Origin: Candidatus Saccharimonadales bacterium
GTDB taxonomy: Bacteria; Patescibacteriota; Saccharimonadia; Saccharimonadales; 2-12-FULL-41-12
Assembly: GCA_041600715.1 (NCBI GenBank)
Contig: JBFIJM010000002.1
Coordinates: 5,770 to 69,769, forward strand
Length of the DNA stretch: 64,000 nt
Reading direction: 5' to 3'
This document shows, piece after piece, positions 3,044-24,628 of this stretch. Below the pieces are notes generated by a model. It saw nothing but the letters and a program-made list of their open reading frames with translations, was not told the DNA's origin and did no database searches. The position numbers were made by a program, and so were the translations under genes. Each line of letters starts with the position of its first letter. Within the stretch, counting starts at the first letter, position 1.

Positions 3044-3045
3044 TT

Positions 3046-7332: not shown

Positions 7333-10300
7333 ATGCCACAGTATTTAGAAGACAAAATACCTAACAATGGAATGAATCGTGACGATGAAAATCGTTTAGT
7401 AGAAAAGAATGAATTTCGATTTGCATTAAATCTACGAGGAGGTTCTTCAGATGATGACAACATTGGGACTATTGAAAACGTAAAAGGAACAACTGAAGTA
7501 ACCTTTGACCTTCCAAAAGGAAACAATAAAGTCATTGGATCTCATGGAGACCAAACAACCAACTCCAATTTCTTCTTCCTATTTAACAGCTTAGGTAATC
7601 ACACCATCTACAGATACTTCCCTGACACAAGAGAGATAAGAATACTCTCTAGGGATAGTCGGTGGAACTTTTCTGAATACGACCTTATTAACGACATAAA
7701 TGTTATTGATGGGGAGCTTCTATACTTTAGAGACATAGAGAACCCACCAAGGAAGATAAACATCAACAAGGCTGATAATGACAACCCTGACACTAGACAG
7801 GTGTTCCATTGGTACTTAGGGGATGACTATTTGGATGGAGAGACTACGCTAGACCTAGTGTTTACTGTTCAACCGGAAAGATATTCAACTGCCCAGGTTC
7901 CTCAGATCACAGAGACATTTACAGTATTAACTCCTGCTCCTGATGAAGGAAAGCCTGAGATTGCTAGAGACCTTACTGAGCAAATAAACAATGGGGTAGC
8001 TAATGGCTCTATAGCTTTAGACATAGAAGCTGAGTCGTGTGGGGAATTTGTTATAATCACAACAACTAGCCCTGACTATTACACTATCACAGCTTTGAAG
8101 GGAGGGTTCAACACTGTAATGGTAGTCCCTCAAAACCACTACATAGGATACGCTGAGAGAACTATTGATGTTATTAAGCATCCTCCTCATTGTGAGCTAA
8201 AGGCTCAAATCAAGACTGACGAGAAGTTTAATCGAAACTACCTATCAAGAAAGGTGTTTCAGTTTGCAGCTAGATATATTTATGATGACGACGAGAAGTC
8301 AACAGTTGACCCTTACTCTATCCATATATTCAATGACAGTCAATGTCTTCAGTTCTCAACACCTACACTGAACAACTATATTGAGATTGACCTTTCGGTG
8401 TTCCCTGAACTTCTTGAACCACTTGAGCTTCAGACTATTAGACAGATAGAGTTGTTTGTCCGTATAGGAGAGCTTGGAAATTGGAAGTCAATAACCACGT
8501 TAGAGCAGTATCAGTTTGTAGATACTGCTAACCAGCATTATGACTTTTACAACAACGGAAGGTACAACCCTGTAGATCAAGCAGACTTTGTTCGTCCTTT
8601 TGATTTGGTTCCAATTAGGACTAAGAATATGGAGATTGCCAAGAACAGACAGTTTTTCGGTAATAACTTAGAGGGGTATGATAATGTTTGTACTGATGCT
8701 AAATTAGACATAGATTACGATGATGTTGAGGCTAGGATAAAACCTCCTACATACACCATAAAAGGAAGGATAGATATTAGAGCTGCGTTTAATGGTGGGT
8801 TCTCTGGGGCATTAAAAGACCATCAGCCAATATGGAAGGATAATATTGGTGGAGATGATGGGCCAGTAACAAACCCTACAGTTTGGGGAGGCATTGATAA
8901 TAAGCCATTCAAGGACTTTGATATGGAGGATATAGCCGCAAAGACAGGTCAAATACTTCCTCTGGGTGGATTTGTTGTTTATTTAGCTGGCACAGACTAC
9001 TATGGAATTTCTAAGCAGAAAACAGGTTATTCAGGACTATCTGATGTTGGACAGGATGACAACGGGGTGTTTGTGGGTAGCGGTGGTAGTTACGTGGATC
9101 ATGTTCGGGAATACATAATTGAAGAAGGGACATACGGAGAGCTTTTTAGTACGTTTGAAATATCGAATGTTCCTGATGGATGGTACTACTTAAGGGTTGC
9201 CTCTCACCAAACGGTACAAGGAGATTTGGATAGCGGAGAAAGAGGGTATCAAAGAACAAGCACAAACGCCTTTCAATTTGTAAATCCAAACTTTCTTAGT
9301 GGAGGGTTTACATATATAGAGGAGGCAGGGTCAAGGAATGAGATATTGGTTCATGTTTCAGCAGGAAACATATCAAACCTACAAAACATAGGGATAAGCA
9401 TAATGGATCTTAGTTATGCAAACAAATTGGGAAGCACCAAGATATTGTCTGGGTATGTTGTTGATAGCGACATAACAGGGAGCATAAGTACTTACTCTGA
9501 AGCAATAGCCGACACAAGGATTTCAAGAGCCCTAGTAACATTTGACAAGTCAGCAGCGACACACCACCATTTCAATACTGTTGTAGGTGGTCAGCCGATT
9601 CCTTCTGACCCAATAAATGATTGGGCTTATGACTATTGGCTTCAAGAACAGGAGCCTGGCGCAGCGACAGAGACAGATACTAGGACTGATGGAACAATAA
9701 CCGACCATAATGGATTTTTCTTTTTTGCTTCATCACAATCAATGTTCAAATTTCCGTTCATTTCAGATGGAAAGTTAAGTATTGAGAACATAAGACCTGC
9801 AAACGACCCTTCCTCAATAGGTCAGTACAATGGGGTTCTTTATTCTCAGCAAGGAGGAACAAACAGCATAAAAGAGAACAGTTTTGCCGTTGTAGCAAGT
9901 AGAGCCCCAGCAGGAGCAAGCAACCTGAATAGAACTAAGGTCACTGGTGTAATAGAGGATCAAAACTCTTTAGGAATACCTAAAGCATCAATCATATCAA
10001 GTAGAACTGCTACTCATGAAACAGATTCAACTGGAGAGTTTGAGTTCTTCCATTACGGAATACTTGACCGTTCAGGAGTCATTGGAGGAGCAGGAGTTTC
10101 AGGTGCTTCAGGTGCTTTTAAAACTCTCCTATTCCCTTCTCAGTCAGCAGGAACCTGTAGTGCTAGTTTCTCAGATAGCGAAATCTACAACTTCAACTTT
10201 GACTACCCTAACTGGTATGTAAACAACTTCTCTCCTGATTTAACTCAAGGGTTTAGTGCTCTAGTGAACTCTGCTCCATTAACATTGGATATTGCAAAGT

Positions 10301-12642
10301 TTATAGGAGACTCATCAGGAATGAAGACTATTAACGCCTTCAAGAGAGGTTTTGATGGGCAGTTGGGTATTATCTACTACGACAGAGGAATGAGGAGTGG
10401 ATCTGTTAACACCGAAGAAAAGCTAAAGATGCACATCCCATTTTATTCTGAAAAGGATGAAGACGGAAACCCATCTCCTCCAGGTGTTCCTGTTGTGTCA
10501 TGGGAGGTTAGACATAGACCACCATCTTGGGCTACTCATTGGCAGTGGGCTAGAACTAGGAATTTAACCGTTGGTAATTACCTTCAGTGGGCGACTGATG
10601 AAGTCACATACACCTTAGATGATGGGGTCACTCCATCTACCTTCCAATCAGGAAGCAGGGTGGTTTTGGGAGTATCCAACATAGCAACATTAAGAAATAA
10701 ATTCCCAAGCCTTGACTACGAATTAGGTCTTGATGACCCTGGAATGAGAGTTAGGTTTATTAAAAGGTATGACGGGCAAAGATACACCGAGTATCTTGAC
10801 TACCCACTACTAGAGAACTCTTCTCTTGGGCTTGTTATAGAGAAAGACTTTGCTCAGGGAGAGATAAAGGCAGGAACTCTTTTTGAGGTTTACAATGAGT
10901 TGCTAGACATTGAGGAAGAGATTTATTATGAGTTTGGAGAATGTTTCGAGGTAAAGCAAAATGTTTCAGGAATAAAATATCATGCAGGGCTGGCTCAAGA
11001 TCAAAACCCATTACTTCCGGCTTCAATACCAGCCACAGGAACCTTTAGGACGGGTGATGCCTACTATAGGCTAAGAAGTATGCCAAGAGCATTGGTTAAT
11101 GAGATTTCTTATATTGATGATGATGCAGTGTCAGACTTTTACCGTTCAGAGGTAGAGTCTATTGGACGAGCTAACGGGATAAATCCTGATGCCGCACAAT
11201 TATGGAAGCCTAATCAAATTAGACATAGTGGGAAGTATATTCCTGATTCTAAGGTGAACAACCTGAGTCAGTTCATATCTGACAGATTCCAACCACTACC
11301 TATAGAGTTTGGAGCTATTAATAAGCTACAGTTGGCTGCAAATGTTCTTATGTCAATACATGAGTTCAGATGGGTGTCCAACTATATCGAGGAAGCTATT
11401 GTTAGAAAGCAAGCAGGAGACGATGATATTGTGGCTACAACCTCTGTATTTGGTTCATTCAGAGCAGCAAAGCAAATAACGGGTACGGTGAACCAAGAGT
11501 CTGTAAAAGAGTACAGGGGAGCTATATGGGCATTTGACCTCAACAAAGGAGAGGTTTATCGTTGGGCTGCTGACGGCCTAACAGCCATATCTCAGTACAA
11601 GATGATTAATTACTTCTCCGACAAGTCTGAAGAAATACTGAGAAACAAGGATCTTGGAGAAAAGCCGTTTAGAGCTATCGGTGTTTACAACTCAAGACAT
11701 GATGAGTACATCCTTTCATTTGGAGAGATAGCTAAGAAGCCAACCGAAGATGTCCCTGTCGCACCACCACTACCTGAGTTTAGGTTTGCGCTTGATGTGA
11801 ACAACTCAGAGATAATTGAGGAGGCTTCAGACAACGCTCTATACACTATAAACGGAAGCAAGGAGTCAGGAAGCGTCTTCATACTTGATGAGGCTACAGC
11901 TCCAAACCTAAAGGGAGTGCAGATAGATAATCAGATAGGATCTGAAGGAGACCTTCTTGTTAAGGTTAAGAGGTTAGACGGAAGTATCGAGGAGGTTGTT
12001 AGACTAGAAGAGGGCCAGGGTATTGCAGACTTCAATATTCAAACAAGAAAGTTTAACCCTAAACCAAGAACTAACGATGCTCAGACTGTTCCGGCTCCCC
12101 AAGGGCAGATTCTTGTCTCAGGAGAGACTGTTGCCTTTAGTGAGAGGATTAACAAGTGGACTACGTTCTACTCGTTTAGACCTGAGATGTTCGGTATTAT
12201 AAGTTTAGAGATGATAGGATTCTCTGAAGGGAGATTATGGATACATAACGACAACGTAATAAGAAACAACTTCTACGGTGTTCAGTACCCTTCTCAGATA
12301 GAAGCCCTATTCAATCAAGAGCCTGGACAGGTGAAAGTATTTGAAGCTGTAGGTATTGAGAGCTACCATCCATGGCACGTACCATCAATGAAGACTCCTA
12401 ATGGAATGGAGACTCAAATGGTAGCAGGAAGGTTTGTTAGAAGAGAGGATAGCTACTTCTCTCCTGTTATGCGAGATATTAATACACCGAACTTTGGGAA
12501 TCAATTTAACGAGGCGATCCTTAATGGAAGGCAGCTAAGAGATAGAACAGCTACGGTATTGTTTCAGAATGATGAGACAGGAGAGGTTGTGCTATTCGCA
12601 TACAGCATGAAGAGCACCTTATCACCAAGACATCAAAAATGA
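7333..12642 (+). CDS. very large structural protein (1769 aa), function unknown (tail tube/nozzle analogue possible from position)
   Basis: Uninterrupted 5.3-kb ORF in the structural block. No enzymatic motif recognised. Confidence 0.8.
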   Translation: MPQYLEDKIPNNGMNRDDENRLVEKNEFRFALNLRGGSSDDDNIGTIENVKGTTEVTFDLPKGNNKVIGSHGDQTTNSNFFFLFNSLGNHTIYRYFPDTREIRILSRDSRWNFSEYDLINDINVIDGELLYFRDIENPPRKININKADNDNPDTRQVFHWYLGDDYLDGETTLDLVFTVQPERYSTAQVPQITETFTVLTPAPDEGKPEIARDLTEQINNGVANGSIALDIEAESCGEFVIITTTSPDYYTITALKGGFNTVMVVPQNHYIGYAERTIDVIKHPPHCELKAQIKTDEKFNRNYLSRKVFQFAARYIYDDDEKSTVDPYSIHIFNDSQCLQFSTPTLNNYIEIDLSVFPELLEPLELQTIRQIELFVRIGELGNWKSITTLEQYQFVDTANQHYDFYNNGRYNPVDQADFVRPFDLVPIRTKNMEIAKNRQFFGNNLEGYDNVCTDAKLDIDYDDVEARIKPPTYTIKGRIDIRAAFNGGFSGALKDHQPIWKDNIGGDDGPVTNPTVWGGIDNKPFKDFDMEDIAAKTGQILPLGGFVVYLAGTDYYGISKQKTGYSGLSDVGQDDNGVFVGSGGSYVDHVREYIIEEGTYGELFSTFEISNVPDGWYYLRVASHQTVQGDLDSGERGYQRTSTNAFQFVNPNFLSGGFTYIEEAGSRNEILVHVSAGNISNLQNIGISIMDLSYANKLGSTKILSGYVVDSDITGSISTYSEAIADTRISRALVTFDKSAATHHHFNTVVGGQPIPSDPINDWAYDYWLQEQEPGAATETDTRTDGTITDHNGFFFFASSQSMFKFPFISDGKLSIENIRPANDPSSIGQYNGVLYSQQGGTNSIKENSFAVVASRAPAGASNLNRTKVTGVIEDQNSLGIPKASIISSRTATHETDSTGEFEFFHYGILDRSGVIGGAGVSGASGAFKTLLFPSQSAGTCSASFSDSEIYNFNFDYPNWYVNNFSPDLTQGFSALVNSAPLTLDIAKFIGDSSGMKTINAFKRGFDGQLGIIYYDRGMRSGSVNTEEKLKMHIPFYSEKDEDGNPSPPGVPVVSWEVRHRPPSWATHWQWARTRNLTVGNYLQWATDEVTYTLDDGVTPSTFQSGSRVVLGVSNIATLRNKFPSLDYELGLDDPGMRVRFIKRYDGQRYTEYLDYPLLENSSLGLVIEKDFAQGEIKAGTLFEVYNELLDIEEEIYYEFGECFEVKQNVSGIKYHAGLAQDQNPLLPASIPATGTFRTGDAYYRLRSMPRALVNEISYIDDDAVSDFYRSEVESIGRANGINPDAAQLWKPNQIRHSGKYIPDSKVNNLSQFISDRFQPLPIEFGAINKLQLAANVLMSIHEFRWVSNYIEEAIVRKQAGDDDIVATTSVFGSFRAAKQITGTVNQESVKEYRGAIWAFDLNKGEVYRWAADGLTAISQYKMINYFSDKSEEILRNKDLGEKPFRAIGVYNSRHDEYILSFGEIAKKPTEDVPVAPPLPEFRFALDVNNSEIIEEASDNALYTINGSKESGSVFILDEATAPNLKGVQIDNQIGSEGDLLVKVKRLDGSIEEVVRLEEGQGIADFNIQTRKFNPKPRTNDAQTVPAPQGQILVSGETVAFSERINKWTTFYSFRPEMFGIISLEMIGFSEGRLWIHNDNVIRNNFYGVQYPSQIEALFNQEPGQVKVFEAVGIESYHPWHVPSMKTPNGMETQMVAGRFVRREDSYFSPVMRDINTPNFGNQFNEAILNGRQLRDRTATVLFQNDETGEVVLFAYSMKSTLSPRHQK

Positions 12643-12941
12643 CAACATACATCTACTACATAATGACGGTAATAGGGATAGGGTACTTCGTTACCCTGTC
12701 AGACCTAATGAAGCCTTTTAGAATGGCTGTGTCCGAATTTAATCAAGACTTAGAGTTCCCCTTTAAGTGGATCGTCGATAAGTTTGATGGAGTGGTAAAC
12801 TGTATCTATTGCTGCTCTTTTTGGGTAGGATTAGGAGTTTACGTTGGCATCTATGAAGTTCTCAACATACATACGGTGTTCAGTGCTTTTTCGGTATTAG
12901 GTGTAATCTATGTGGTCAAGAATATCTTTCCTAAGCATTAA
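12639..12941 (+). CDS. small integral membrane protein (DUF1360-like CxxC-W motif)
   Basis: 100 aa, three hydrophobic segments, NCIYCCSFWVGLG motif. 4-nt overlap with the 1769-aa gene. Confidence 0.6.
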   Translation: MTTYIYYIMTVIGIGYFVTLSDLMKPFRMAVSEFNQDLEFPFKWIVDKFDGVVNCIYCCSFWVGLGVYVGIYEVLNIHTVFSAFSVLGVIYVVKNIFPKH

Positions 12942-12972: not shown

Positions 12973-13491
12973 ATGCCTATAATTGAAATAGATAAAGAAT
13001 TAGAAGTCATACAACCCTCAGAAATGAGAGATATGATAATGGACTTCGAGGATGTTCTTAAGGGTGTTGATGGGGCTGTAATCGGAGATTCGGCAGTATG
13101 TCCATTAGAACATTCGTTCTCAGATGGCATTTACGTAAGACAAATAACTATTCCAAAGGGGATGCTTATCGTTGGGAAGATCCACAAGCACGAACACCCT
13201 AACTTCCTATTAAAGGGAGAGGTTGTTGTTGTGACAGAGGAAGGAGGAGAGGAAAACTTATCTGCTCCATGCTCTATGATTTCTAAGGCAGGGACAAAGA
13301 GAGCTTTGTATGCTAAGACGGAATTAGTTTGGACTACCATTCACCACAACCCCACAAACACTCAGGACTTAGAGGAGTTGGAGAAGATTGTTATTGCCGA
13401 TAGCTTTGAGGACTACGAGAAGTTTTTAGAAAGCAAGAAGGGTGTAACACAAAAGATAAAGAATTTACTAATTAAAACATTGAGCAAATGA
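12973..13491 (+). CDS. cupin-like beta-barrel protein
   Basis: 172 aa. GKIHKHEHPNFLLKGEVVVVTEEG resembles cupin His-containing motifs. Confidence 0.5.
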   Translation: MPIIEIDKELEVIQPSEMRDMIMDFEDVLKGVDGAVIGDSAVCPLEHSFSDGIYVRQITIPKGMLIVGKIHKHEHPNFLLKGEVVVVTEEGGEENLSAPCSMISKAGTKRALYAKTELVWTTIHHNPTNTQDLEELEKIVIADSFEDYEKFLESKKGVTQKIKNLLIKTLSK

Positions 13492-14168
13492 GTTGGGTAA
13501 CAGTGGCGGTTGGCGTAGGCACAGCGGCTTATGGCGTATATCAATCGCAGAGCGCAAAAAAAGAAGCTAAAAAAGAAAAGGCTAGGGCTGATATTGAAGG
13601 TAAAGCTACTCAGGCAGAGATTGATGCGTCCATGAAAGAAAGAATGGGTAGAGTCAGACAGAGAGAGATGACGAGTATGCCAGGCCAAGAGCTTATGGAG
13701 CAAAAGATTGGAGCCTCTACAGCTAGTGGGTTAACCGCATATAAAGAAATGGGTAATCAGGCGAACTTCCAAAACATGATACAGCAAAGTATTAGACAGC
13801 AAAACCAACAGTATGCTGATATTGGAATTAAAGCTGCTCAATATAAATTAGACAGGTCTTTAGATGTTGATGAGGCATTAATGGATAAAGCAGGAATGAC
13901 TGCTAGAAGACAAGCAATGGAGCAACAAAGAAGTGATGCTGAGATGGCACGACTAAGAGAGAGACAACAAGCAGGAGAGCAAAACATTGCAGGAGGAGCG
14001 CAACTAGGGGCTCAGGGTGCTTTTGGAGCAGCAGGATCAGGTGGAGAAGGCGGTAGAGTTAAAGGAGAAGGAGCTGCTAGGAGAAAGGAAAAAAGAGAGT
14101 TAAAGGGATTTAGAAACGCTGAAGATGAGTACGGTAAGCAATATCTAGGACAAGGATACGGAAGTTAA
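13488..14168 (+). CDS. putative internal virion protein (gp14-like by position)
   Basis: 226 aa with an N-terminal hydrophobic helix, a Q/R/E-rich coiled region and a Gly-rich tail. First of three genes of increasing size. Confidence 0.55.
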   Translation: MSWVTVAVGVGTAAYGVYQSQSAKKEAKKEKARADIEGKATQAEIDASMKERMGRVRQREMTSMPGQELMEQKIGASTASGLTAYKEMGNQANFQNMIQQSIRQQNQQYADIGIKAAQYKLDRSLDVDEALMDKAGMTARRQAMEQQRSDAEMARLRERQQAGEQNIAGGAQLGAQGAFGAAGSGGEGGRVKGEGAARRKEKRELKGFRNAEDEYGKQYLGQGYGS

Positions 14169-14182
14169 TAAATTTAGAATAG

Positions 14183-15751
14183 ATGGCATTAGAAGATCAA
14201 TACGGAGCAAGAGGATTAGGAAGGACATCAGCAATGGTTGTTGACCTTTCGCCTACTTATGCCTTTTTGAAACAAAACCGAGAGGAAACTAGGAAGAAAA
14301 ATGCTGAGAGACAGGCAAAGAGGGCTGTAAAACAAGCGGCAGTAGGCTCATTGTTAGATGACCTAAAAGCAGGAGGAAGGCAAAAACATATCCAACATTT
14401 TCAGGACGAGAAGAAGCATATTACAGATTTTTATTACCAAGGACTTCAGGAGGGTGGAACTGATTTTTTTATAGATAACCCAAAAAAAGCTCAGGAATTA
14501 AGGGATATGGTCAGTAAGTATGAGTCTGACATGAAGTGGTCTGAGGGTTCCGCAAAAGAGGTTGAAGCAATGCTGGAGAGATCTCACAAATCTCCATCAG
14601 AGGTCAACATGGAGTCTGTTAAGGAGTTTAAGAATTGGTATGACTCCGATTTTGAGACGCAAAGAACAACTGGAATGAAATACATAGAGGATGCTGAGAA
14701 GAATCTAACAGACCTTGTTACTACTAACTTAAAGGATGAAATAGAGGGTCAGATAGCCGCAATCTCCACCCCAACAAAGAAAGACCCTATCACAGGTGAG
14801 TACGCCCAAATAACAACAAAGGGAGCAACTGACAAGAGCCTTATGGCTATAGCTGATAGAGTTGTCTCAAATGAGTCTTCAGAAGTTGGTCAGAAAGCAT
14901 TAAAGGATGCTATGTCGGAAATTAATCAAGATCTTATTCCTCAATATTTGTCTGATGAAAATGGAGAGCAGGTGGTAAATCCTGAGTTCTTAAGTGCGGC
15001 TAAAGAAATAGCTGTCAGAAATGTTTTTGATATAAACAAGCAAATAGCAGGAAAATCTGATTATACTAAAGCCCTGCGTGGAGGAACTACAGGAGGAACA
15101 ACAAAAGGAGTTCCCTCAGCAACAGCAGTTCAAGATAAAGATAGGGGATGGGTCACAGGGGTTGGTGGAACATCAAACGAACACGCAGCTTCGTCGGGAA
15201 CTGCTCATGGACAGAAAGTTATACAGATAAAACACCCTATAATCGTCAATCCTGATGGATCATACGAAAGGGTTCCCCCAGGAACGGAGGGAGCTATCGA
15301 GGCTTATAGTTGGATTGATAAGTCTGGAAACTTGGTCAAGGCATCAGATGTTTCAGAGGATAAAAAATTCAAAACCCATCCCGTTAAGACTCAGGTTGGA
15401 ATAACAGATGGTGAGGTTGTTAAATTAGACAAGGCTCCTGAATATTATTACGACGACTCAGGTAAAAAGAAATCAATACCAGACCCAAATGTTGTTGAGG
15501 ATGCCAGAATAGTTGAATACAAAAAAGTTGACGTTAATGAGGATAGTAAGGGTAATCTGATATTTGAGGACGACAAAAGATACAATAAAGACAATAAGGT
15601 GGAGATTGAAGTCGTAACAGTAAAGACTAAGGCTGGGACTTATAACTTTCCTTATACGGATGACTTGAAAGAAAGCTTCTCTGAAACTGACGCTTTAATT
15701 AAAGAGAAGGGAGGCGGTAAATCAACCAAACAATCAATACCAGGGTTTTAA
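14183..15751 (+). CDS. putative internal virion protein (gp15-like by position)
   Basis: 522-aa ORF lying between the 226-aa and 2563-aa genes. Confidence 0.55.
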   Translation: MALEDQYGARGLGRTSAMVVDLSPTYAFLKQNREETRKKNAERQAKRAVKQAAVGSLLDDLKAGGRQKHIQHFQDEKKHITDFYYQGLQEGGTDFFIDNPKKAQELRDMVSKYESDMKWSEGSAKEVEAMLERSHKSPSEVNMESVKEFKNWYDSDFETQRTTGMKYIEDAEKNLTDLVTTNLKDEIEGQIAAISTPTKKDPITGEYAQITTKGATDKSLMAIADRVVSNESSEVGQKALKDAMSEINQDLIPQYLSDENGEQVVNPEFLSAAKEIAVRNVFDINKQIAGKSDYTKALRGGTTGGTTKGVPSATAVQDKDRGWVTGVGGTSNEHAASSGTAHGQKVIQIKHPIIVNPDGSYERVPPGTEGAIEAYSWIDKSGNLVKASDVSEDKKFKTHPVKTQVGITDGEVVKLDKAPEYYYDDSGKKKSIPDPNVVEDARIVEYKKVDVNEDSKGNLIFEDDKRYNKDNKVEIEVVTVKTKAGTYNFPYTDDLKESFSETDALIKEKGGGKSTKQSIPGF

Positions 15752-15762
15752 TTATAGAGGTT

Positions 15763-18700
15763 ATGGCTACAGACAGCAAGACAAGATTGTTATACGATGC
15801 AGTTTCTAAGGATTATGATTTAGGAACATTTGAGGAGTTTGAGGCAAAACTACAGTCTCCTGATAAAAGGCAGGCTTTCTTTGATGGGGTTGGTGCTAGA
15901 TATAACCTTGGGTCATTTGAAGAATTTGAATCCAAGGTAAAAAAAAAAGAAGAAACTCAACCAAGAGATTTTTCAGCTCTTGCAGAAGGTATTGGGAGAG
16001 GTGTCGAAGCTCGTTCAAAAGCTATTCAAGAAGAACAAAAGGAAGTCCCACAAGAAGCCCAGCCTTTTCCAGAGCTTAGTGAAGAGAGAGACCTATCAAC
16101 TCCTGCTGCAAAACCTTCAAGGAGTATGTCTGGACTTGATTCACCTATTGAGGAAGTTGTCGAGGCTCCGGGTGAAGATTTACTTCCAACAGAAGTAGCA
16201 CTACCGTCAGAAAGCACATCAGTACAAGCCCCAATAATCCCTGAAGAACAAGCATTAGAAGGTGCAGACCCATTATTCATGGGGGGTGAGATGCTACGAA
16301 AGAAAGAAGAGGATATTGTTTCTAAGAGACAACAGAAGCTAAGAGAGGAGACGTTCAAAAGAACTATGAATATTGAGGGTCGAAGAGGATTCCCGATAGA
16401 AGAGGGCGACATCCCTAAGACTCAAGAGGAGCTTGACATCCTTAGTGGAGCAGCCAAGAACTACGAGATACTAATAACATCCAAACTAGAGGAGCACGTT
16501 CCTGAAGATTTAAAGTTAAAGGCTGCTTATGTTGAGAGAGAAAGAGAAATTATTAATCAAATAAAATCAGGAGAACTAAGTAAGGAAGATTCTACTAAGG
16601 CTAGGGCAAAACTTATTGAGATAAATAAGCAGTTGTTGTCGAGCGACAACAATAAGAAGCTGTTTAATCCTGTTACAGGAGAAACAGTGGATCAAGATAA
16701 GGCTCCTGTAGAAGCCATTGAGTATGATGGTATGGTTAAGAATCTTGTTGAGAACAAGTATTCAGACATAGAGGACGCATATCAAGCATCAGAAAAGGCT
16801 ATACACAAGTATGATTACTATGACGAGGAATTAGACAAGCCTTCTGGATACCTAAACTTAACATACAGAGACTTATCTGACCCTATAAAGAGAGCATCTC
16901 TACTAGCTAGTAATCAGTTCGTTGACGAGCAGATACTAGATAAATCCAAATTATTAAAGGAGAGATGGATAGACTCTAAGGCTAATGTAGAGGCTATTTC
17001 AAGAGCTATTATGGTGAATGAAGACCCATCTCAGATTGAGAGAGGTTTCGGTGGTGGAGCAGGATTTACTGAGAGCGTAGAGAAGGGGTTTATGGAAGCC
17101 ATTGATATGGGTGAGCAAGTAACGTCTACTGAAGGAGACTTTGCTACTCGGTTTGTCGGTGTTGTAAGAGATGCAGGAAAGGATAAGATTCTTACTAAGG
17201 CTCAAGTAGCTAACACCGAACAAGCGTTTGCTGAAAAATTAGGGTACGGAGTAGGAGCTTCTATTCCTATTATGGCAGAGATAGCAGTGACTACTGCCTT
17301 AACAGAAGGTATTGCTACTGAGGCTGTTGTAGCTAAAAACATAAAGAAAATCAAGGATGCTTTCGGAACATCTAAGGCAGGAAAGCTATTTGGGAACACT
17401 ATAGAGCAAGGAGTAAAAGGATATGCTTCTTTTGCCCCTACATCAGAGACAGGAGCCACAGGAGTTGGTGAGGGTGTTGCCCAGGGGGTGATGGATACCT
17501 TTCTACCTGAGAAGTTGATTGGAGGAAAGTACGGAAAGCTCCTTAACTACATAATAAGAACCGTTGGTGGGGGTACAGGGGAGACCATACAAGAGGTTTC
17601 AGGACAATACTTTGATGCACTAGCTGAAAACGGATATGATGCAAGAGGAGCGTTCTATGACGCTTTTGGAAGAACCCCTGAAGAGAGATGGGAGAACCTT
17701 GCGTTGATAGGGACCACATCATTAATGTTCTCGGGTGTATTCAATTCTGCCCGATTGGTTATGACTAAGGATGCCCTAGAGGAGGAGATTGAAAATGGTA
17801 ATATTCCGGAAGAAGATATTCCTGCTGCTCAGGAGATCATTAATACCATGGAGGAGAAGATTGATAGTGAAGAAGCTGCTGACACTCCAAAGGTTGCTCC
17901 TGTTGTTGAGGAGGAGGATGTTGCTGAGGAAGTAGCTCCTACCGAGGAGATACAGGGAGTTGTAGATGAGATTAAAGAGATTGATGCCAAGCTAGATGAG
18001 TCTAAGGGTGTGATGAAGAGTATTTTCCGTTCCACAAAGAAGGAGAAAGAACTTGAGGAATTATACAGTAAGAGACGTAAACTAGATGATAGGCTGTGGA
18101 AGGAGTTTGGTGAGGTCGCAACAAGTGAAGATTTTGATGAGGTTGACCGTTTAGCATTAGAGCTTGAAGAAGGAAAGGAGTCGGGTAAATGGTCTGAAAA
18201 AGAGATTGAACAGAAAAATAAAGAGTTATGGGATAAACGATACGAGCTTAGGGATTCGGTATTAGAAAGAACCATTAAGGAGAAAAAATCCGAACCTAAA
18301 GCAGAAGCACCAAAAAAGAAACCAACTAAAAAAACCAAAGAAGATGCCGTTCAAGAGCGAAAAACAGAGGAGGTTCCTGTACAGCCAGAAGCCCGAGTTG
18401 GCGAAGCAGTGGAGCCAGGAAGAAAAGTACAAGAAGAGGAAGTCGAACCTGTCAAAGAAAAAGAAGCCGAAGAAGCCAGAGGTGTGGTCGAGCCTGGTGA
18501 GGTCAAGGATATAGAAAGAAGAAGAAAAGACAGTTTGCATATTGTAACACAAGCAGACTTAGATAGAGGAGAAGATGTAGGAATTACAGAGAAGGATGGT
18601 CTATTTAGAGGAGACTATTATAGTAGTGCTGATGAGTATGGTAATGTACGAATAGCAAGTGTTATTGGTACTTTAAAAGAAGTACAAGATCATCTTAATG

Positions 18701-21700
18701 CTGAATATGATGCAGAATTAGCTTCTTTGGAATCTAGTGAAGTCAAGGGGAAACCAAAAGTTGAGGCTCCGAAAAAAGAAGCACCAAAGAAAGAGACAAA
18801 AGCCCCAAAAGCAGACCTTAAGAAGGTTGAAGAGGTAGAAGAGCCATCTAAGGCTCCTGCTAAGGAGTTTACAGTACAGGAGATCACTAAGGCTCCAAAG
18901 AAGATTGAAGGAAAATCTGCTTATGAATTTGAGGACACCGAAGGGAAGAGATATATTGTAGGTATTACTAGGGGAAATAAGAAGGTGTGGGTTGTATCTA
19001 GCAATGAGGATGGCTCTCTTCCTGACCCTGGAACACATAGAAGTGCTAAGGCTGCTGAAAAGTGGATGAAGGACAATGTAGGTAAGCCATTAAAAGAAGC
19101 TGCGCCTAAGAAAGAGGTTAAGAAGCCAATAAAACCTATTAAGATAAGTGAGGTATCTCCAGAGCCTAAAAAACCTGTAAAGGTTAAGCCTACGGAGCCT
19201 ACAAAACCTGCCAAAGAACAAAGTGTAGAGGCTCAGGAAATCTCAAATGAACTTTCGGCATTAAAAGATGAACACGCCAAACTTCTTGATGAAGGAAGAA
19301 AAGGTGGTGCTAATATAATCCTTAGTAAAAACCTTGCCAAAAAAGAGGCAGAAATAAAAAAGGCAGAGAAAGCTCTTAAGACTCAACTTACTAAGGATGC
19401 TAAAGCTGCCAAGAAAACAGCAGAAGCTCCAAAGAAAGAAGCTCCTAAGAAAGATTTACCACAAAAGATAGAAGATGAGGTGGCTCAGATTAAAAAAGAT
19501 AGAGCAGCCAAGGAAATAAAAGCGAAAGAAGAAAGGGAGGCAAGGAAAGAGGCTCAAAAGAAAAAGGCTGAGAAAAAAGAAGCTCCAACCAAGAGCTTGG
19601 TTGATGAAGTGAATAGGGTTGAGTCGGAGATTGAGTCTTATACGGCTGATATAGAGGATAAGCAAAATGAAATAAAAACAGAAAGAGAGAATTTAAAGGA
19701 TGAGCTTAAGACATTAAAAGACAAGAAGGATAAGATCAAGAAGTCCAAAATGTCTAAGGCTAAAAAAGAAGAGGCTCTTGAGGATGTTGATGCGGAGATA
19801 CAAGACCTAAAAGACGATACTGCTGACTTAATCGAAGTTTACAAGGATGAAGTGAAAGAGGCAAAATCAGAAATAACAAAGCTAAACAAGGAGAAAGGAA
19901 AGGTTGAGGCTGAAGTATCTAAGGCTTTAGAGGAGGCTAAGTCTGATAGCGAAAAGGTAGGAGATTTAATAGCTGAGGCTGAAAAGGAAGAGAAGGCTGA
20001 GAAAGCTGAGGTCGCCAAGAAGAAGACCCTAAAGAAGCCAGTAAAAGATACCAAGGAGTCTTTAATGGAGGATTTATCAAACATTGACCCTAGTGAAGCT
20101 CCATTTACTCTTTTTGCTAGAGCAAAAGGATTAGGTATAACTGATGATCCTGAATTTTCAAAAGCATATATAGAAAAAGCCAAAGCACATAGCAAGTATT
20201 CAGCAGAACAAAAATCTAAGGTGGACGAGGAAGAGGATGCTATATATGAGGATATAGAGGAAGGTGAGTTTGGTTTTGAAGAGGAGGATTTTGGGGAGTT
20301 ATTTGAAGGTGAAGACCCTTCTACACCAGAAGGGAAGGATTCAATCAAGAAGATGTTGGATGACTTAGATAATGACCTTAGAGATTTCGGAGAAGGAACA
20401 TTAGGGATGAATATGCCAGTCGTTGTTGCTAGGGCTATTGTGAAAGCAATGAAGGCAGCAGTAAGCACTGCAACCTCAATACTTGACATAATAAATGCAG
20501 GTATTAAACAAATGAAGACTACATCTTGGTATAAGAAGGCGAGCCCAAAAAATAAGGCTGCTGCCGTAGCAAACGTAGCTACTAATATAGGAGTAGCGAT
20601 AGATGAGACTAGACAAGTTAAAATACCGAACCCCCTCAATAAGTCTAAGCCTATTGTAATGACTATTCCTGAGTCCCTAGATGGGATGATTGATGCTTTC
20701 AACCAAAGGATAGTAGATAAGTTCTATGACATTAGGAAGGCTCAAAGATCTGTAGAGAAAAGAAAGGGAAGCGTATCTGATAAAGCTAACTTTGACAAGG
20801 CTGAAGTTCTTCTTCATGGTAAGGCATCTAATGACTTGAAAATATTTGAAGGAAAGGTTGAGAAGTTGGCTAAGGACATGGCTAAGAGAAATGTTAGTCA
20901 ACAAGAGTTGTCTGATTATATGTATGCTCGACACGCACAAGAAAGAAATGAATACATAAGAGACAATATTGACCCAAAGAATCATTCAGGATCGGGTATG
21001 ACAACTAGCGAAGCTAATGCTATCCTTAACTCACTATCACCTGAGCAGATAACAAACCTCGATGCCTTAGCTGACCAGGTATATGGATTTGCAGAGGACA
21101 CTAGGAATAATATGGTTAAGTTTGGTCTTTGGAGTGAGAAAAACGCAGACAACTTAAGGGGTCTGTACAATAATTACGTTCCTTTAATGGGATTCGATGC
21201 TGATGAAAGTTTCGGTAATGAATACATAGATTTAGGTCAGGCCTTATCTGTAAAAGGGAAAGAAGGGATGAGGGCTACTGGTAGAACAACAAAAGCTGCA
21301 AATGTAATTGCAAACATTATATCTCAGCACTCTAACAGTATAATTAGAGGAAGGAAGAATGAGGCCATGCAATCTTTACTATTCCTTGTTAAGGACAACA
21401 AAGAAATAGGTCATGTTATCCATCCTAAGATAAACCTAGACACCAAGAAAGGATTCAATTCTAAGGGAGAGCTTACGGATATTCCAATTAGACCAGAGCA
21501 GAATAAGAACTATGTTGGAGTTAAGATTGGTGGCCAGCAGTTTTATATAAAGTTCAAGAATGATAGAATGGCAAAGGTTGTTAACGCTGCCAACATAGAG
21601 AAGACAAACATCATCAATAAAACCGTTGGTAGATTCAATAGATTCCTTAGCTCCACAATGACCTCTTATAACCCTGAGTTCGTTCTTACAAACTTCTCTA

Positions 21701-23454
21701 GGGATATTCAGGCGGCAATGATTAATATGCTCTCTGAGTCTGACATAGCGAAAGATTCAGTTCAAGGAAAGAAGTTGATTGCTGACACATTAAAAAATGT
21801 AATGCCAGCTATGGGGTCTATCCTTAAGAGTGAGGTAGGCAAAAAGTCTAATAACCCCGAAATGGAGCAGTACTATGAGGAGTTTAAGGCAGATGGAGCT
21901 AAGACTGGGTGGTATCATGCAAAAGATTCTTCAGGTGTAGCTAAAGATATTCAAAACATAATAGCCCTACAAGAAGCAGGAACCTTCTCGCCAAGGCAAG
22001 CTGCAAAAGCCTGGAAGTCTACAAAGAATTTTGTCGAGGGAGTAAATACTGCTGTTGAGAACGCAGTTAGGCTCTCCACATACGTAAGTGCCAGGAAAAA
22101 TGGAGTAAGCAGGTCTGATGCGGCAGTTCTAGCTAAAGAGCTTACCGTAAACTTTAACAGAAGTGGAGAGTGGGGAACCGTAATGAACTCAATGTACTTA
22201 TTCTTTAACGCATCTGTTCAGGGTACTGCTAGGTTCGCAAAGGCAATGCTTACTCTGAAGAAAACAGTTAATGCTGATGGAGACACAGAGTACGGGCTGA
22301 ACAGGGGTCAGAAATTAGCAGGGGCTATGGTAGCCTTTTCCTCAATGCAAACATTAATAAACCAGGCTATATCTGATGATGATGAGGATGGGGAGTCTTT
22401 CTACAGTAAGATTCCTGACTATGAGAAGGAGAGAAATATGATTATAATGAATCCTAATGGTAGAGACTATTTTAAAATTCCGCTGCCTTATGGGTTCAAC
22501 ATTTTTAGTAACGCAGGAACTATGCTTACCGAGGTGTCAACAGGAGAGAGAGAGGTTGGTGATGGAACTCTATTTATGATAGGATCAATAATAAACTCAT
22601 TTGTTCCAGTTTCATTCTCTAGCAGTAATGATTGGGACAAGAAAGTTGTAAAAGGAGTTACACCGACTGTTATGAAGCCATTCATTGAGCTTGCCGCTAA
22701 TGAAGATTATTTCGGTAGTACAATATATAATGAGAATTTACCTTTCGGTGCTAAGAAACCTCAATCCTCTATAGGAAGGAGGTCAACGTGGAGTGGGTAT
22801 AAAGACTTAGCAGAATTTTTAAATGAAGCTACAGGAGGAAACGAATATGTAAGTGGAAAGATAGATATTAACCCTGATAAAATAGCTCACATCTTCAAGT
22901 TTATGTCTGGTGGTACAGGTAAGTTTGTAGGTAGAACAGTATCTAGTGCTGGGGTTGTTTTCGACAAAGCAAGAGGAATACCTTCTGAGCTTGAGATGAG
23001 AAAGGTTCCTTTCGCTAGGGTTGTATATGGAGAGCCTAGCAAGTATGTGGATCAGACTAGTTATTATGACCGAAGAGATGAGATTGGTCAGATAGCGGAA
23101 GAGTACAAAAACGCAACCTTCCAAGAAAAGAAAGACCCTAAATTTAAGGGGGTCAAGAACCTAGCAAACCTAATAAAGGTTACAGACAAGAAGCTGAAGA
23201 GTTTAAGGGCTAAAACAGACGCAGCTAATAACATGGAAGACCCTATAAAAAGAGCTATGACTCTTAATGATATAGAGAAAAAGGAGAAGACGACATATTC
23301 CAATTTCAATAGAGAGTATAATAAGTATTCTGAGAAAGAGAAAGTTAAGACTGTTTTCGCACCAAAAAGAGGGGGAAAATCATCAGGAGGTGGAAAAACA
23401 AAGTCTTCTGGGTATGGTTCAAGTAAAGATTTTAAATCCTCAAAAGGGTTTTAA
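15763..23454 (+). CDS. giant virion protein (2563 aa), putative ejection/internal (gp16-like or polyvalent) protein
   Basis: 7.7-kb uninterrupted ORF. Has a duplicated N-terminal Y-x-LG-x-FEEFE-x-K motif and about 600 aa of K/E/A/P low complexity (APKKEAPKK). The C-terminal ~1100 aa are of normal composition. Confidence 0.8.
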   Translation: MATDSKTRLLYDAVSKDYDLGTFEEFEAKLQSPDKRQAFFDGVGARYNLGSFEEFESKVKKKEETQPRDFSALAEGIGRGVEARSKAIQEEQKEVPQEAQPFPELSEERDLSTPAAKPSRSMSGLDSPIEEVVEAPGEDLLPTEVALPSESTSVQAPIIPEEQALEGADPLFMGGEMLRKKEEDIVSKRQQKLREETFKRTMNIEGRRGFPIEEGDIPKTQEELDILSGAAKNYEILITSKLEEHVPEDLKLKAAYVEREREIINQIKSGELSKEDSTKARAKLIEINKQLLSSDNNKKLFNPVTGETVDQDKAPVEAIEYDGMVKNLVENKYSDIEDAYQASEKAIHKYDYYDEELDKPSGYLNLTYRDLSDPIKRASLLASNQFVDEQILDKSKLLKERWIDSKANVEAISRAIMVNEDPSQIERGFGGGAGFTESVEKGFMEAIDMGEQVTSTEGDFATRFVGVVRDAGKDKILTKAQVANTEQAFAEKLGYGVGASIPIMAEIAVTTALTEGIATEAVVAKNIKKIKDAFGTSKAGKLFGNTIEQGVKGYASFAPTSETGATGVGEGVAQGVMDTFLPEKLIGGKYGKLLNYIIRTVGGGTGETIQEVSGQYFDALAENGYDARGAFYDAFGRTPEERWENLALIGTTSLMFSGVFNSARLVMTKDALEEEIENGNIPEEDIPAAQEIINTMEEKIDSEEAADTPKVAPVVEEEDVAEEVAPTEEIQGVVDEIKEIDAKLDESKGVMKSIFRSTKKEKELEELYSKRRKLDDRLWKEFGEVATSEDFDEVDRLALELEEGKESGKWSEKEIEQKNKELWDKRYELRDSVLERTIKEKKSEPKAEAPKKKPTKKTKEDAVQERKTEEVPVQPEARVGEAVEPGRKVQEEEVEPVKEKEAEEARGVVEPGEVKDIERRRKDSLHIVTQADLDRGEDVGITEKDGLFRGDYYSSADEYGNVRIASVIGTLKEVQDHLNAEYDAELASLESSEVKGKPKVEAPKKEAPKKETKAPKADLKKVEEVEEPSKAPAKEFTVQEITKAPKKIEGKSAYEFEDTEGKRYIVGITRGNKKVWVVSSNEDGSLPDPGTHRSAKAAEKWMKDNVGKPLKEAAPKKEVKKPIKPIKISEVSPEPKKPVKVKPTEPTKPAKEQSVEAQEISNELSALKDEHAKLLDEGRKGGANIILSKNLAKKEAEIKKAEKALKTQLTKDAKAAKKTAEAPKKEAPKKDLPQKIEDEVAQIKKDRAAKEIKAKEEREARKEAQKKKAEKKEAPTKSLVDEVNRVESEIESYTADIEDKQNEIKTERENLKDELKTLKDKKDKIKKSKMSKAKKEEALEDVDAEIQDLKDDTADLIEVYKDEVKEAKSEITKLNKEKGKVEAEVSKALEEAKSDSEKVGDLIAEAEKEEKAEKAEVAKKKTLKKPVKDTKESLMEDLSNIDPSEAPFTLFARAKGLGITDDPEFSKAYIEKAKAHSKYSAEQKSKVDEEEDAIYEDIEEGEFGFEEEDFGELFEGEDPSTPEGKDSIKKMLDDLDNDLRDFGEGTLGMNMPVVVARAIVKAMKAAVSTATSILDIINAGIKQMKTTSWYKKASPKNKAAAVANVATNIGVAIDETRQVKIPNPLNKSKPIVMTIPESLDGMIDAFNQRIVDKFYDIRKAQRSVEKRKGSVSDKANFDKAEVLLHGKASNDLKIFEGKVEKLAKDMAKRNVSQQELSDYMYARHAQERNEYIRDNIDPKNHSGSGMTTSEANAILNSLSPEQITNLDALADQVYGFAEDTRNNMVKFGLWSEKNADNLRGLYNNYVPLMGFDADESFGNEYIDLGQALSVKGKEGMRATGRTTKAANVIANIISQHSNSIIRGRKNEAMQSLLFLVKDNKEIGHVIHPKINLDTKKGFNSKGELTDIPIRPEQNKNYVGVKIGGQQFYIKFKNDRMAKVVNAANIEKTNIINKTVGRFNRFLSSTMTSYNPEFVLTNFSRDIQAAMINMLSESDIAKDSVQGKKLIADTLKNVMPAMGSILKSEVGKKSNNPEMEQYYEEFKADGAKTGWYHAKDSSGVAKDIQNIIALQEAGTFSPRQAAKAWKSTKNFVEGVNTAVENAVRLSTYVSARKNGVSRSDAAVLAKELTVNFNRSGEWGTVMNSMYLFFNASVQGTARFAKAMLTLKKTVNADGDTEYGLNRGQKLAGAMVAFSSMQTLINQAISDDDEDGESFYSKIPDYEKERNMIIMNPNGRDYFKIPLPYGFNIFSNAGTMLTEVSTGEREVGDGTLFMIGSIINSFVPVSFSSSNDWDKKVVKGVTPTVMKPFIELAANEDYFGSTIYNENLPFGAKKPQSSIGRRSTWSGYKDLAEFLNEATGGNEYVSGKIDINPDKIAHIFKFMSGGTGKFVGRTVSSAGVVFDKARGIPSELEMRKVPFARVVYGEPSKYVDQTSYYDRRDEIGQIAEEYKNATFQEKKDPKFKGVKNLANLIKVTDKKLKSLRAKTDAANNMEDPIKRAMTLNDIEKKEKTTYSNFNREYNKYSEKEKVKTVFAPKRGGKSSGGGKTKSSGYGSSKDFKSSKGF

Positions 23455-23504: not shown

Positions 23505-23867
23505 ATGGCACTAGAATTAGTAACAAACACAACAGGAAAAAGAAGTGAGCAAGAGTCTCTTGAGATAATAGCTGGAGCTCAAGCAGTAAGGCTTGTTCAG
23601 GCAGGAGAAACATTTGTAGGAAGCATTAAAGCTGTAGTACCGAATGTTGCCTCAACAATCACTGCTATTCTTGCTGATGATGGAAATGGCACAGATGTAG
23701 TTGGAGCAGGAGCAGGAGAGTTAAACATTTCAGCAATGACGCTTGGAGCAGGAGCTTACATCATTCCAAACAGATATAAGATTTCAAAAAGCTTTACATC
23801 TGTGACTTGTGGAGCAGGAAGCCTTTGGGTATACTACAACAACACAATAGATAACATCGGACTATAA
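23505..23867 (+). CDS. hypothetical structural protein
   Basis: 120-aa ORF after a 50-nt gap. Its stop overlaps the next start (TAATG). Confidence 0.6.
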   Translation: MALELVTNTTGKRSEQESLEIIAGAQAVRLVQAGETFVGSIKAVVPNVASTITAILADDGNGTDVVGAGAGELNISAMTLGAGAYIIPNRYKISKSFTSVTCGAGSLWVYYNNTIDNIGL

Positions 23868-24628
23868 TGGGTATTAGAAGACCAAAAATAGGGTTAGGGT
23901 TAGGGATCTCGGGTAGAACTGAGATTGCTCCTTTACCAGTATTTGATCCGCTTACCCTTTCCCCCTATATGTGGAACAGAGCTGATAGCGTCACTAAGGA
24001 TGCTTCGGACTACATTAGTGCGTTTGATGACTTAGCTGGCAATGGAAACTTCTTAAGACAAACCGTAGCCAACGAACAACCTCAACAACAAATAAGTGTA
24101 CCGGGATTCCCGGCAGACATTCCTGGGGCTAAATTTGATGGTATTGATGACGATGTGTTTTCAACTAATGTACTATTATCTGCCCAAACAAAATGGGAGA
24201 TATATACGGTGTGGAGAACTGACCTAGACACGACAGATTTATGGAGGATTAATGCTAGTAATCAATGGAGAGCCTACAGGCAAGCAAATCAACAAAAAGC
24301 TAGAATTAGGAATGGTGTTGGGTCATTTGCAAACTACGTATTATCAAACGCAGTAACACCTGGAAATTTAGTTCTTAGAGATGCCATTACCAATGACGGT
24401 ATTACTGATGGGGTATCACATAGAGATAATTTAGATACAGAGAAATTTGTTCCAGTAGCTGGATTCTTTTCTAATTTCGGAGGGAATATGGATATAGGAA
24501 ACACGGGTGCTGTTGGAACTAGGTTTGATGGATGGTTTATGGAGATGTTATTATTTCACAGACACCTAACCCCTGACGAGAGAAACAACTTAAATAGTTA
24601 CTTCAGTTCAAGATACGCAACATTCTAA
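23867..24628 (+). CDS. LamG/concanavalin-A-like lectin-fold protein
   Basis: 253 aa. FDGIDDDVFS and FDGWFMEMLLFHRHLTPDERNNL resemble the Laminin_G_3 signature ends. Confidence 0.5.
   Translation: MGIRRPKIGLGLGISGRTEIAPLPVFDPLTLSPYMWNRADSVTKDASDYISAFDDLAGNGNFLRQTVANEQPQQQISVPGFPADIPGAKFDGIDDDVFSTNVLLSAQTKWEIYTVWRTDLDTTDLWRINASNQWRAYRQANQQKARIRNGVGSFANYVLSNAVTPGNLVLRDAITNDGITDGVSHRDNLDTEKFVPVAGFFSNFGGNMDIGNTGAVGTRFDGWFMEMLLFHRHLTPDERNNLNSYFSSRYATF

Follow-up and report, generated by a model that had tools for sequence, protein, structure and literature searches.

What does a phage gain from a protein of more than two thousand residues in which no enzyme can be recognised? The question is raised by a 64,000-nt stretch of contig JBFIJM010000002.1 (positions 5,770 to 69,769 of the forward strand; assembly GCA_041600715.1, filed under Candidatus Saccharimonadales), referred to here as the window, where one gene at 15763-23454 (+) encodes a protein of 2563 amino acids (aa) and 285 kDa without a single cysteine. 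The open reading frame (ORF) opens with ATG just behind a GAGG, 12 nt downstream of the stop codon that closes a gene of 522 aa, itself preceded by a gene of 226 aa, so that the single ORF and its position were read correctly when the sequence was first described. That original prediction also placed the giant protein inside the virion, as an ejection protein resembling the polyvalent proteins that some phages inject together with their DNA. Our analysis suggests that it is probably a protein of the LPD38 type, packaged in the capsid and entering the host by ejection together with the DNA, and that it comes from a Bacteroidota podophage which has a muzzle and a distant relationship to Pachyviridae and Crassvirales.

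The last ~1100 aa had been described as free of any recognisable motif, which proved to be a limit of reading by eye. Pfam LPD38 (PF18857), the sole Pfam domain of the giant, matches aa 2214-2403 (22402-22971, +; E 8e-39; 134 bits, the cutoff being 27). PHROGs 14770, 616, and 10691 cover aa ~1630-2522, in each case with the C-terminal end of a profile of 2800-3900 positions; the remaining modules are conserved and uncharacterised. Together with tblastn alignments, AlphaFold 2 (AF2) modelling, and comparison with the BFVD collection, the profile ends delimit a mostly alpha-helical module of ~900 aa, termed C-core here (aa 1628-2534; 20644-23364, +). It was found by tblastn in 379 phage records, including Vibrio, Ralstonia, Burkholderia, and Bacillus phages as well as Shiga toxin (Stx)-converting and other Escherichia phages, with ~35% identity to Vibrio podophages over its full extent, and a metagenome search returned 34 homologues, the best of which (P0001) is 48% identical over aa 1616-2520. 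The AlphaFold model of the C-core, mostly helical with small beta inserts (predicted local distance difference test, pLDDT, 77; predicted template modelling score 0.74), matches 72 BFVD models at E<=1e-3, among them PTXU04 and Ralstonia phage Alix, with a best template modelling score of 0.82 over ~900-950 alignment columns; most of these matches fall on a later section of a long phage protein that the collection has divided up. The PDB yielded neither a fold match (Foldseek best E 1) nor a profile match (nothing better than E 0.23), and Foldseek hits to transporters were discarded as chance-level helical similarities with a best E of ~1. The module is always C-terminal in its carriers, and because the domains upstream of it differ among relatives (ART-PolyVal, InPase, and LPD3, or LT_GEWL, RelA/SpoT, and methylase in the names of BFVD relatives), it is the constant part of these giants, while the region in front of it varies. 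The 189 positions of the Pfam LPD38 model represent only part of a single C-terminal fold of ~900 aa, to whose family the window giant belongs by homology over the full ~900 aa and by C-terminal location. On a related viral contig, a stand-alone ORF of 175 aa (L004, 4058-4585) is weakly similar (E 8e-4) to C-core aa 2203-2291 and may be an isolated piece of the LPD38 region.

Many phages, those with Shiga toxin included, encode giant LPD38 proteins. Iyer et al., who defined polyvalent proteins, found LPD38 only in those of the phage type and assigned it no function (PMC5512222). The window giant carries a domain of that inventory, namely LPD38, but not the 2-15 distinct domains including enzymatic or nucleic-acid-binding effectors that mark phage-type polyvalent proteins; thus, the proposed likeness stands for LPD38 membership and falls for the strict sense of the term, since an enzymatic domain is undetectable. 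A homologous C-terminal module of ~900 aa ends the giants of phi24B and 933W (gp47, 2811 aa), PTXU04_00025 (2198 aa), and Vibrio phage 252E42.2 (p0009, 3066 aa). The phi24B protein combines LPD5, LPD1, and LPD38 with a MuF-C peptidase; proteomics detects it abundantly in virions, but it is invisible in cryo-electron microscopy (cryo-EM), and its authors propose an encapsidated ejection protein that forms a trans-periplasmic conduit (bioRxiv 10.64898/2026.04.10.717836). PTXU04_00025, for which LPD38 is the sole annotation, is required for efficient infection (bioRxiv 10.1101/2023.09.18.558157). In contrast to these relatives, the window giant lacks LPD1, LPD5, the MuF-C peptidase, a methylase, and any further recognisable domain upstream of the C-core, and instead has an N-terminal tandem repeat (N-motif), a Gly-rich N-domain, a charged spacer of ~850 aa, and a crAss-type muzzle cassette. 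It therefore represents the family stripped down, with no recognisable enzyme and only conserved end modules plus a spacer. Such an enzyme-less build argues that the conserved ends might be the delivery machinery and the variable middle either payload or tether. The general nature of the giant is already described in the literature, whereas our searches met no description of how far the C-core extends, of the two N-terminal modules, of the effector-less architecture, or of a conserved run of ten adenines near the start of the gene (A10).

The second line of evidence is the genomic neighbourhood. A protein of 1769 aa encoded at 7333-12642 (+) is a crAss-type muzzle protein (Pfam crAss_MUZ_C, E 7e-14; crAss_MUZ, E 1e-8; phmmer against crAss001 gp44, E 2e-8), and it is followed by two small genes, the 226-aa gene (13488-14168, +), the 522-aa gene (14183-15751, +), and the giant, the 226-aa and 522-aa ORFs being positional counterparts of small cargo or ejection proteins. 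In crAss001 the muzzle gp44 is likewise followed by gp45 (C1), gp46 (C2, 534 aa), and gp47 (2341 aa), all cargo proteins verified by mass spectrometry (PMC10172136), so the last two genes measure 534 + 2341 aa there and 522 + 2563 aa here. The proposal for the crAss001 cargo is storage in capsid and tail followed by extrusion in a partly unfolded state (Bayfield et al. 2023, PMC10172136); this cargo is predicted to be alpha-helical, as is the window giant, and the proposed capsid storage and unfolded tail passage match as well. On the other hand, gp45-gp50 of crAss001 share no sequence similarity with the window giant and possess neither N-motif nor LPD38. The arrangement of muzzle, small cargo proteins, and giant is nevertheless recurrent: a muzzle-like ORF lies upstream in 41 of the 46 viral contigs with an N-motif, typically with ORFs of ~200-330 aa and 420-740 aa, in this sequence, between it and the giant, and the same order is seen on the contig of the closest C-core relative (L003), on those of two N-domain relatives (L005, L007), and in L012. 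Pachyviridae, the family of phi18:3, has podoviral members (PMC8776804), and in phi18:3 tandem mass spectrometry (MS/MS) proteomics underlies the annotation of four products as virion proteins, namely gp114 (the homologue of the muzzle), gp120, gp121, and the giant gp123. The remainder of the window is phage as well, with a large terminase, an endolysin downstream of the giant, a GroEL-like chaperonin, and replication genes, and the giant gene lies among virion and packaging genes, with tail-fibre-like, virion structural, and muzzle genes upstream. A search of the phage database did not contain this phage among its entries. The muzzle match places the phage in a broad lineage of muzzle-bearing podophages that includes Pachyviridae-like phages of marine Bacteroidota and lies outside Crassvirales proper.

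The proposal of a virion-internal, ejected protein is thus backed by homology and synteny only, that is, by LPD38 relatives found in virions and by the muzzle cassette. Several points weigh against it. The virion location is inferred from relatives, and LPD38 has no experimentally shown function in any phage. The 226-aa and 522-aa proteins have no family matches and no detectable similarity to their positional counterparts, so that synteny at these two genes consists of size and order only. The body of phi18:3 gp123 shows no detectable homology to the window giant, and the N-motif alone links both proteins. No segment of the giant reaches transmembrane-grade hydrophobicity (Kyte-Doolittle maximum 1.4), and the invariant polar residues of the C-core (N1977, R1980, D1981, E2099, R2103) could equally mark an unrecognised enzyme. 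Roles assigned to single modules are much less certain than the reading of the whole as a packaged and ejected LPD38 protein.

Ejection proteins of T7 and P22 are packed in the head, ejected unfolded, and form a conduit across the cell envelope, and the same behaviour is proposed for the window giant. Like gp14/gp15/gp16 of T7 and gp7/gp20/gp16 of P22, the window genes sit late in the structural module in ascending order of size; unlike them, the giant has no PHROG or Pfam homology to these proteins, lacks a transglycosylase domain, and is twice the size of gp16. It would be made late, stored inside the head, and pushed out unfolded by way of portal, tail, and muzzle, either preceding the DNA or together with it, before refolding in the envelope or cytoplasm. 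All-helical predictions, the absence of cysteine, and weakly hydrophobic helices would suit unfolding and passage through a narrow channel. The Gly-rich, weakly hydrophobic helices of the N-domain are candidates to insert into a membrane or form a channel once ejected. The C-core, which also occurs in giants from phages of the Stx, Vibrio, Ralstonia, Burkholderia, and Bacillus groups, is probably a generic ejection or conduit module, and the charged spacer of ~850 aa and freely variable length that joins N-domain to C-core might be an extended tether.

The alternative that survives best, although we consider it unlikely, is that the giant is an effector carrier in which an enzymatic or anti-defence nature has escaped recognition in two orphan islands within the spacer, in the N-domain, or in the C-core; these would disarm the host as DarB does instead of serving as structural machinery of ejection. 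The invariant N/R/D/E/R residues of the C-core speak for this, as do relatives with ART, kinase, GNAT, SNF2, and methylase domains, and some LPDs may be enzymatic according to Iyer et al., whose list of potentially enzymatic LPDs, however, does not contain LPD38 (PMC5512222). A weak match to PHROG 10089, 'DarB-like antirestriction' (E 1.5e-19), arises only via the shared C-terminal region at the end of that profile, and membership in the P1 DarB type was rejected with LPD36, the adenine methylase, and the SF2 helicase module all absent. Moreover, Pfam, NCBIfam, PHROG, and PDB sequence searches detected no enzymatic domain in the 2563 aa, and a motif scan found no HExxH, DxDGD, or DFDxD, in agreement with what had been noted from the sequence; a helicase-type Walker A match was absent as well, the sole hit to the Walker A pattern, at aa 2533, falling in the Gly/Ser/Lys tail. 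The constant modules are also exactly those that are kept when effectors change.

The N-terminal end of the giant is made of a tandem repeat of 2 x 29 aa (aa 6-34 and 35-63; 15778-15951, +), delimited by motif positions, homologue alignment, and a match to PHROG 24532 (E 4e-22). The duplicated Y[DN]LG[TS]FEEFE[AS]K noticed earlier is indeed present at aa 18-29 and 47-58 and forms part of this longer unit, whose consensus among homologues is K[RK]xLYDAVSKDYDLGTFxEFxxKL. An exhaustive HMMER search with aa 1-760 returned 407 representative clusters at E<=1e-3, the 150 best of which were analysed, and at least 65 of these 150 representatives carry the N-motif, whereas Pfam (E<=5) and NCBIfam had no match to it. 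The 67 stretches recovered belong to 35 giants of at least 1000 aa, 13 mid-size proteins, and 19 ORFs below 250 aa, the motif beginning at residue 1-29 in 66 of them and being 45-68% identical (aa ~4-70) in most matches. A degenerate DNA pattern search retrieved only three true N-motif loci, all in metagenome-assembled genomes of Bacteroidales. Because the repeat is 67% identical to Cellulophaga phage phi46:3 gp119 (E 9e-24) and present in so many representatives, its duplication is evidently not a product of chance. The Cellulophaga giants of Pachyviridae (phi18:3 gp122 + gp123; phi46:3 gp119 + gp120 + gp121) share this repeat and the same cassette with the window, and the phi46:3 protein further has a junction element and a diverged C-core as in the window giant; their bodies are otherwise unrelated, their genes are split at a run of nine adenines (A9), and they have no long Lys/Glu/Ala/Pro-rich spacer. 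As the repeat is the best-conserved piece, always N-terminal, and tied to the cassette rather than to any particular body, we infer that it is a docking or packaging tag that ties interchangeable giant bodies to a conserved part of the virion.

Directly after the repeat, the gene contains an in-frame tract of ten adenines (15939-15948, +; GTA AAA AAA AAA G, encoding V59 and K60-K62). No other run of A>=8 exists in the 7.7 kb of the gene, and no other run of A>=9 or T>=9 in the 64 kb of the window, while AAA makes up 44% of Lys codons in the gene and the other three KKK triplets use mixed codons. An exact A10 at codon ~52-78 occurs in 25 distinct loci of viral contigs, the window included, within ORFs of 2000-3000 codons that nearly always have no second run of A>=9, and it is retained even where the encoded peptides differ (VKKKE, LKKKD, EKKN). 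Across 29 distinct related ORFs, none of the 55 KKK triplets past codon 100 is written entirely in AAA, against 20.8 expected from the codon usage of each ORF itself, whereas 18 all-AAA triplets lie inside the first 100 codons. Poly-A is thus avoided elsewhere and maintained at A10, which amounts to selection at the nucleotide level.

A homopolymer of at least nine adenines conserved beyond the need of the protein sequence is what a slippage site would look like, and A10 fits this description. A shift of +1 or -1 at the tract leads to a stop 13-83 codons further on (median ~30) and to a product of ~75-150 aa, a size that overlaps the 85-221 aa of the 19 short N-motif ORFs in the protein database, several of which diverge immediately after KKK. 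No stimulatory RNA structure was predicted 3' of the tract (z -0.5). Poly-A transcriptional frameshifting has precedents (reviewed in PMC5009743; the tssM case in PMC4256274), and A10 is most economically read as a putative site of RNA polymerase slippage or of ribosome sliding on poly-A, which could limit how much of the 285-kDa protein is made, produce a tag-only protein, or do both. Repeat and A10 together may even form one cassette across a large clade of muzzle-bearing Bacteroidota podophages, a universal tag for interchangeable cargo in which slippage fixes the ratio of a tag-only protein of ~90-150 aa to the full-length 285-kDa protein or throttles synthesis; we offer this as a tentative proposal, possible rather than probable. 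If true, A10 would be a recoding site not described so far, and giant proteins would follow a general rule when they are loaded into phage heads. Either way, the conserved A10 marks the start of these giant genes, and a recoding or attenuation signal is directly testable.

Three Cellulophaga phages, phi18:3, phi46:3, and phi19:3, have A9 at this site, and an N-motif ORF of ~100 aa is followed by the giant in another frame (gp122/gp123 of phi18:3, L010 6980-13110; gp119/gp120/gp121 of phi46:3, L001 11983-18822; gp128/gp129 of phi19:3, L011 6983-12918). When A9 is read as A10, the N-motif ORF fuses in frame with the giant, as for phi18:3 gp122 + gp123. Apart from these three isolates, the tract is in frame at every locus that could be followed, mostly as A10, for which reason the Cellulophaga A9 is most likely a homopolymer under-call and real phase variation of the split ORFs is disfavoured. 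The three genomes were reportedly sequenced by 454. If A9 is indeed an under-call, the MS/MS-verified gp123 of phi18:3 would carry the N-motif, and the finding suggests that the separate gene models at this place should be united in all three of the published Cellulophaga genomes. The split between gp120 and gp121 of phi46:3 looks like a single gene, too, with gp121 matching the hidden Markov model (HMM) of the C-core at E 2e-12.

Behind the repeat, an acidic linker rich in Pro, Ser, and Glu (aa 64-229; 15952-16449, +; net charge about -16), defined by composition and conserved only in the closest relatives P0035 and P0056, leads to the N-domain of ~500 aa (aa ~230-740). Its part A (aa 230-420; 16450-17022, +) is modelled as a helical bundle with a beta-hairpin (AF2 pLDDT ~75-90) and has homologues in 13 of the 150 representatives. 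Part B (aa 421-700; 17023-17862, +) is Gly-rich, weakly hydrophobic, helical, and highly conserved, with the motifs GxTGETxQE, FGRTxEE, and TSxMFSGAFN and invariant G/E/N columns in the alignment, and forms the conserved core that 84 of the 150 best representatives share, these being giants of ~1450-4040 aa and also shorter or partial proteins. Hydropathy peaks at aa 496-514 and aa 648-666. Despite its high conservation, part B reaches a pLDDT of just 35-50; since high conservation, low single-chain confidence, and weak hydrophobicity fit together in this way, it may adopt its structure in an oligomer or in a membrane. Searches against the PDB gave no fold match by Foldseek and no profile match (nothing better than E 0.23), hits to 14-3-3 proteins were rejected as chance-level helical similarity (best E ~1), and neither half had a match in Pfam (E<=5) or NCBIfam. 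Other carriers of these N-terminal modules are of the polyvalent kind, with SNF2, LPD23 plus a metallopeptidase, Kinase-PolyVal, or GNAT domains. Word-indexed searches with aa 1-760 and with the N-domain alignment gave 0 or 1 protein, the index being swamped by low-complexity words, and these negatives were disregarded.

The middle of the giant is a charged spacer (aa 701-1545; 17863-20397, +) made up of helix-prone segments rich in E, K, and R together with three KP/AP segments rich in Pro, and it closes with an acidic stretch. The original prediction described residues ~700-1330 as almost pure Lys/Glu/Ala/Pro; the bias is real, the purity is not, as the share of these four residues in 100-aa windows is 0.43-0.62 over aa ~650-1450, compared with 0.20-0.27 over aa ~1700-2400 and up to 0.39 near the ends of the C-terminal module, and two islands of ordinary composition interrupt it. 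The reported repeats of the APKK and KP types are present (APKK seven times; a KP/EP-rich stretch at aa ~1119-1150), and the helix-prone segments at aa 751-850 and 1151-1450 contain almost no Pro or Gly. At the DNA level the spacer holds no tandem arrays, only one 15-nt x2 duplication, which argues for biased composition and against recent repeat expansion. Apart from one weak match, the 150 representatives contain no homologue of it, and its length does vary, a point raised at the outset: relatives with the N-domain have 0-600 Lys/Glu/Ala/Pro-rich residues, while the 817 found here are the most. Because its length is clearly not conserved, the stretch fits a tether or spacer better than a folded functional domain.

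In composition it is similar to domain II of TolA and the Pro-rich spacer of TonB, with K/E/A-rich helical and KP/EP stretches that span the periplasm in those two proteins; the likeness is compositional only, no Pfam match was found and homology is not claimed, and the window spacer is several times longer. Islands 1 (aa 896-990; 18448-18732, +) and 2 (aa 1041-1110; 18883-19092, +), both recognised by composition, are orphans with no match in Pfam (E<=5), in NCBIfam, or among the 150 representatives. Between spacer and C-core lies a junction element, GxxTLGxNxP...SWYKK (aa ~1546-1627; 20398-20643, +), within a region common to phi46:3 gp120 (aa 1526-1832 against 1055-1370, E 1e-17); the element also occurs in 6 giants that have no C-core, and Pfam at E<=5 gave only sub-threshold noise over aa 1450-1649. 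Beyond the C-core the protein ends in a basic tail rich in Gly, Ser, and Lys (aa 2535-2563; 23365-23451, +), as judged from composition and an AF2 pLDDT below 50.

These modules are combined in an unusual manner. The closest C-core relatives, P0001 (1649 aa, 48% identity) and P0002 (1549 aa, 42%), have nothing in common with the window giant upstream of the C-core, and P0035, which with 53% identity comes nearest in the N-domain, has no C-core. N-domain and C-core occur together in only two of the 150 representatives, clearly in P0062 and more weakly in P0053, and among 38 N-motif giants from viral contigs one (L034) has a C-core and none an N-domain. The combination of all three is unique to the window among ~190 sampled giants, and the protein reads as a mosaic of three independently widespread modules, two of which, the N-terminal repeat and the N-domain, are reusable modules absent from Pfam and NCBIfam and without functional annotation in PHROGs. 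Such uniqueness, together with junctions in low-complexity sequence, is what one would expect if two phage genomes had been wrongly joined within the spacer. We regard a chimeric or mis-assembled ORF as very unlikely, however, given that GC content (0.39-0.43) and positive GC skew continue unbroken along the gene, that the flanks are coherent with the muzzle cassette upstream and a lysis gene downstream, that partial combinations exist in P0062 (N-domain and C-core) and L034 (N-motif and C-core), and that neither half has a relative closer than ~50% identity, which leaves no donor pair in evidence.

Large size, location in the structural module, and a long extended-looking segment could also describe an external protein, either a tail fibre or adhesin or a ruler of the tape-measure kind, and this appears more improbable still. 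Matches to a fibre or tape-measure family, which would have spoken against an ejection protein, were absent from Pfam, PHROGs, and NCBIfam, the predicted folds are helical and not beta-rich, and fibre-like genes are found elsewhere in the window (54-4949 and 12973-13491). The muzzle context is of podovirus type, muzzle-bearing phages being podoviruses without a tape measure (PMC10172136; PMC8776804), and phi24B gp47 is absent from external cryo-EM density. A virion RNA polymerase or subunit thereof, as in crAss001 gp47, gp49, and gp50 or N4 gp50, is suggested by the post-muzzle position and a size near that of crAss001 gp47 (2341 aa) but has a negligible chance of being correct, with DFDxD and DxDGD absent, profile (HMM) and pairwise (phmmer) searches against crAss001 gp45-gp50 empty, and DFDxD at chance level in related giants (1/35 and 4/106).

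Some other genes of the window deserve mention beside the giant. A GroEL-type chaperonin is encoded at 33751-35340 (-) (PHROG 5725, E 3e-139) and a weakly GroES-like protein at 57911-58591 (+) (E 1.5e-6), a pair that could aid the folding of very large virion proteins such as the giant. Within the structural module, between the muzzle gene and a short-tail-fibre-like gene, 12639-12941 (+) encodes a strongly hydrophobic, Cys-containing small membrane protein of 100 aa. Downstream of the giant, a protein of 253 aa (23867-24628, +) resembles crAss001 C1 gp45 (aa 179-225 against 183-228, E ~1e-5), and these gp45 residues overlap the helix 214-245 with which gp45 binds the tail barrel.

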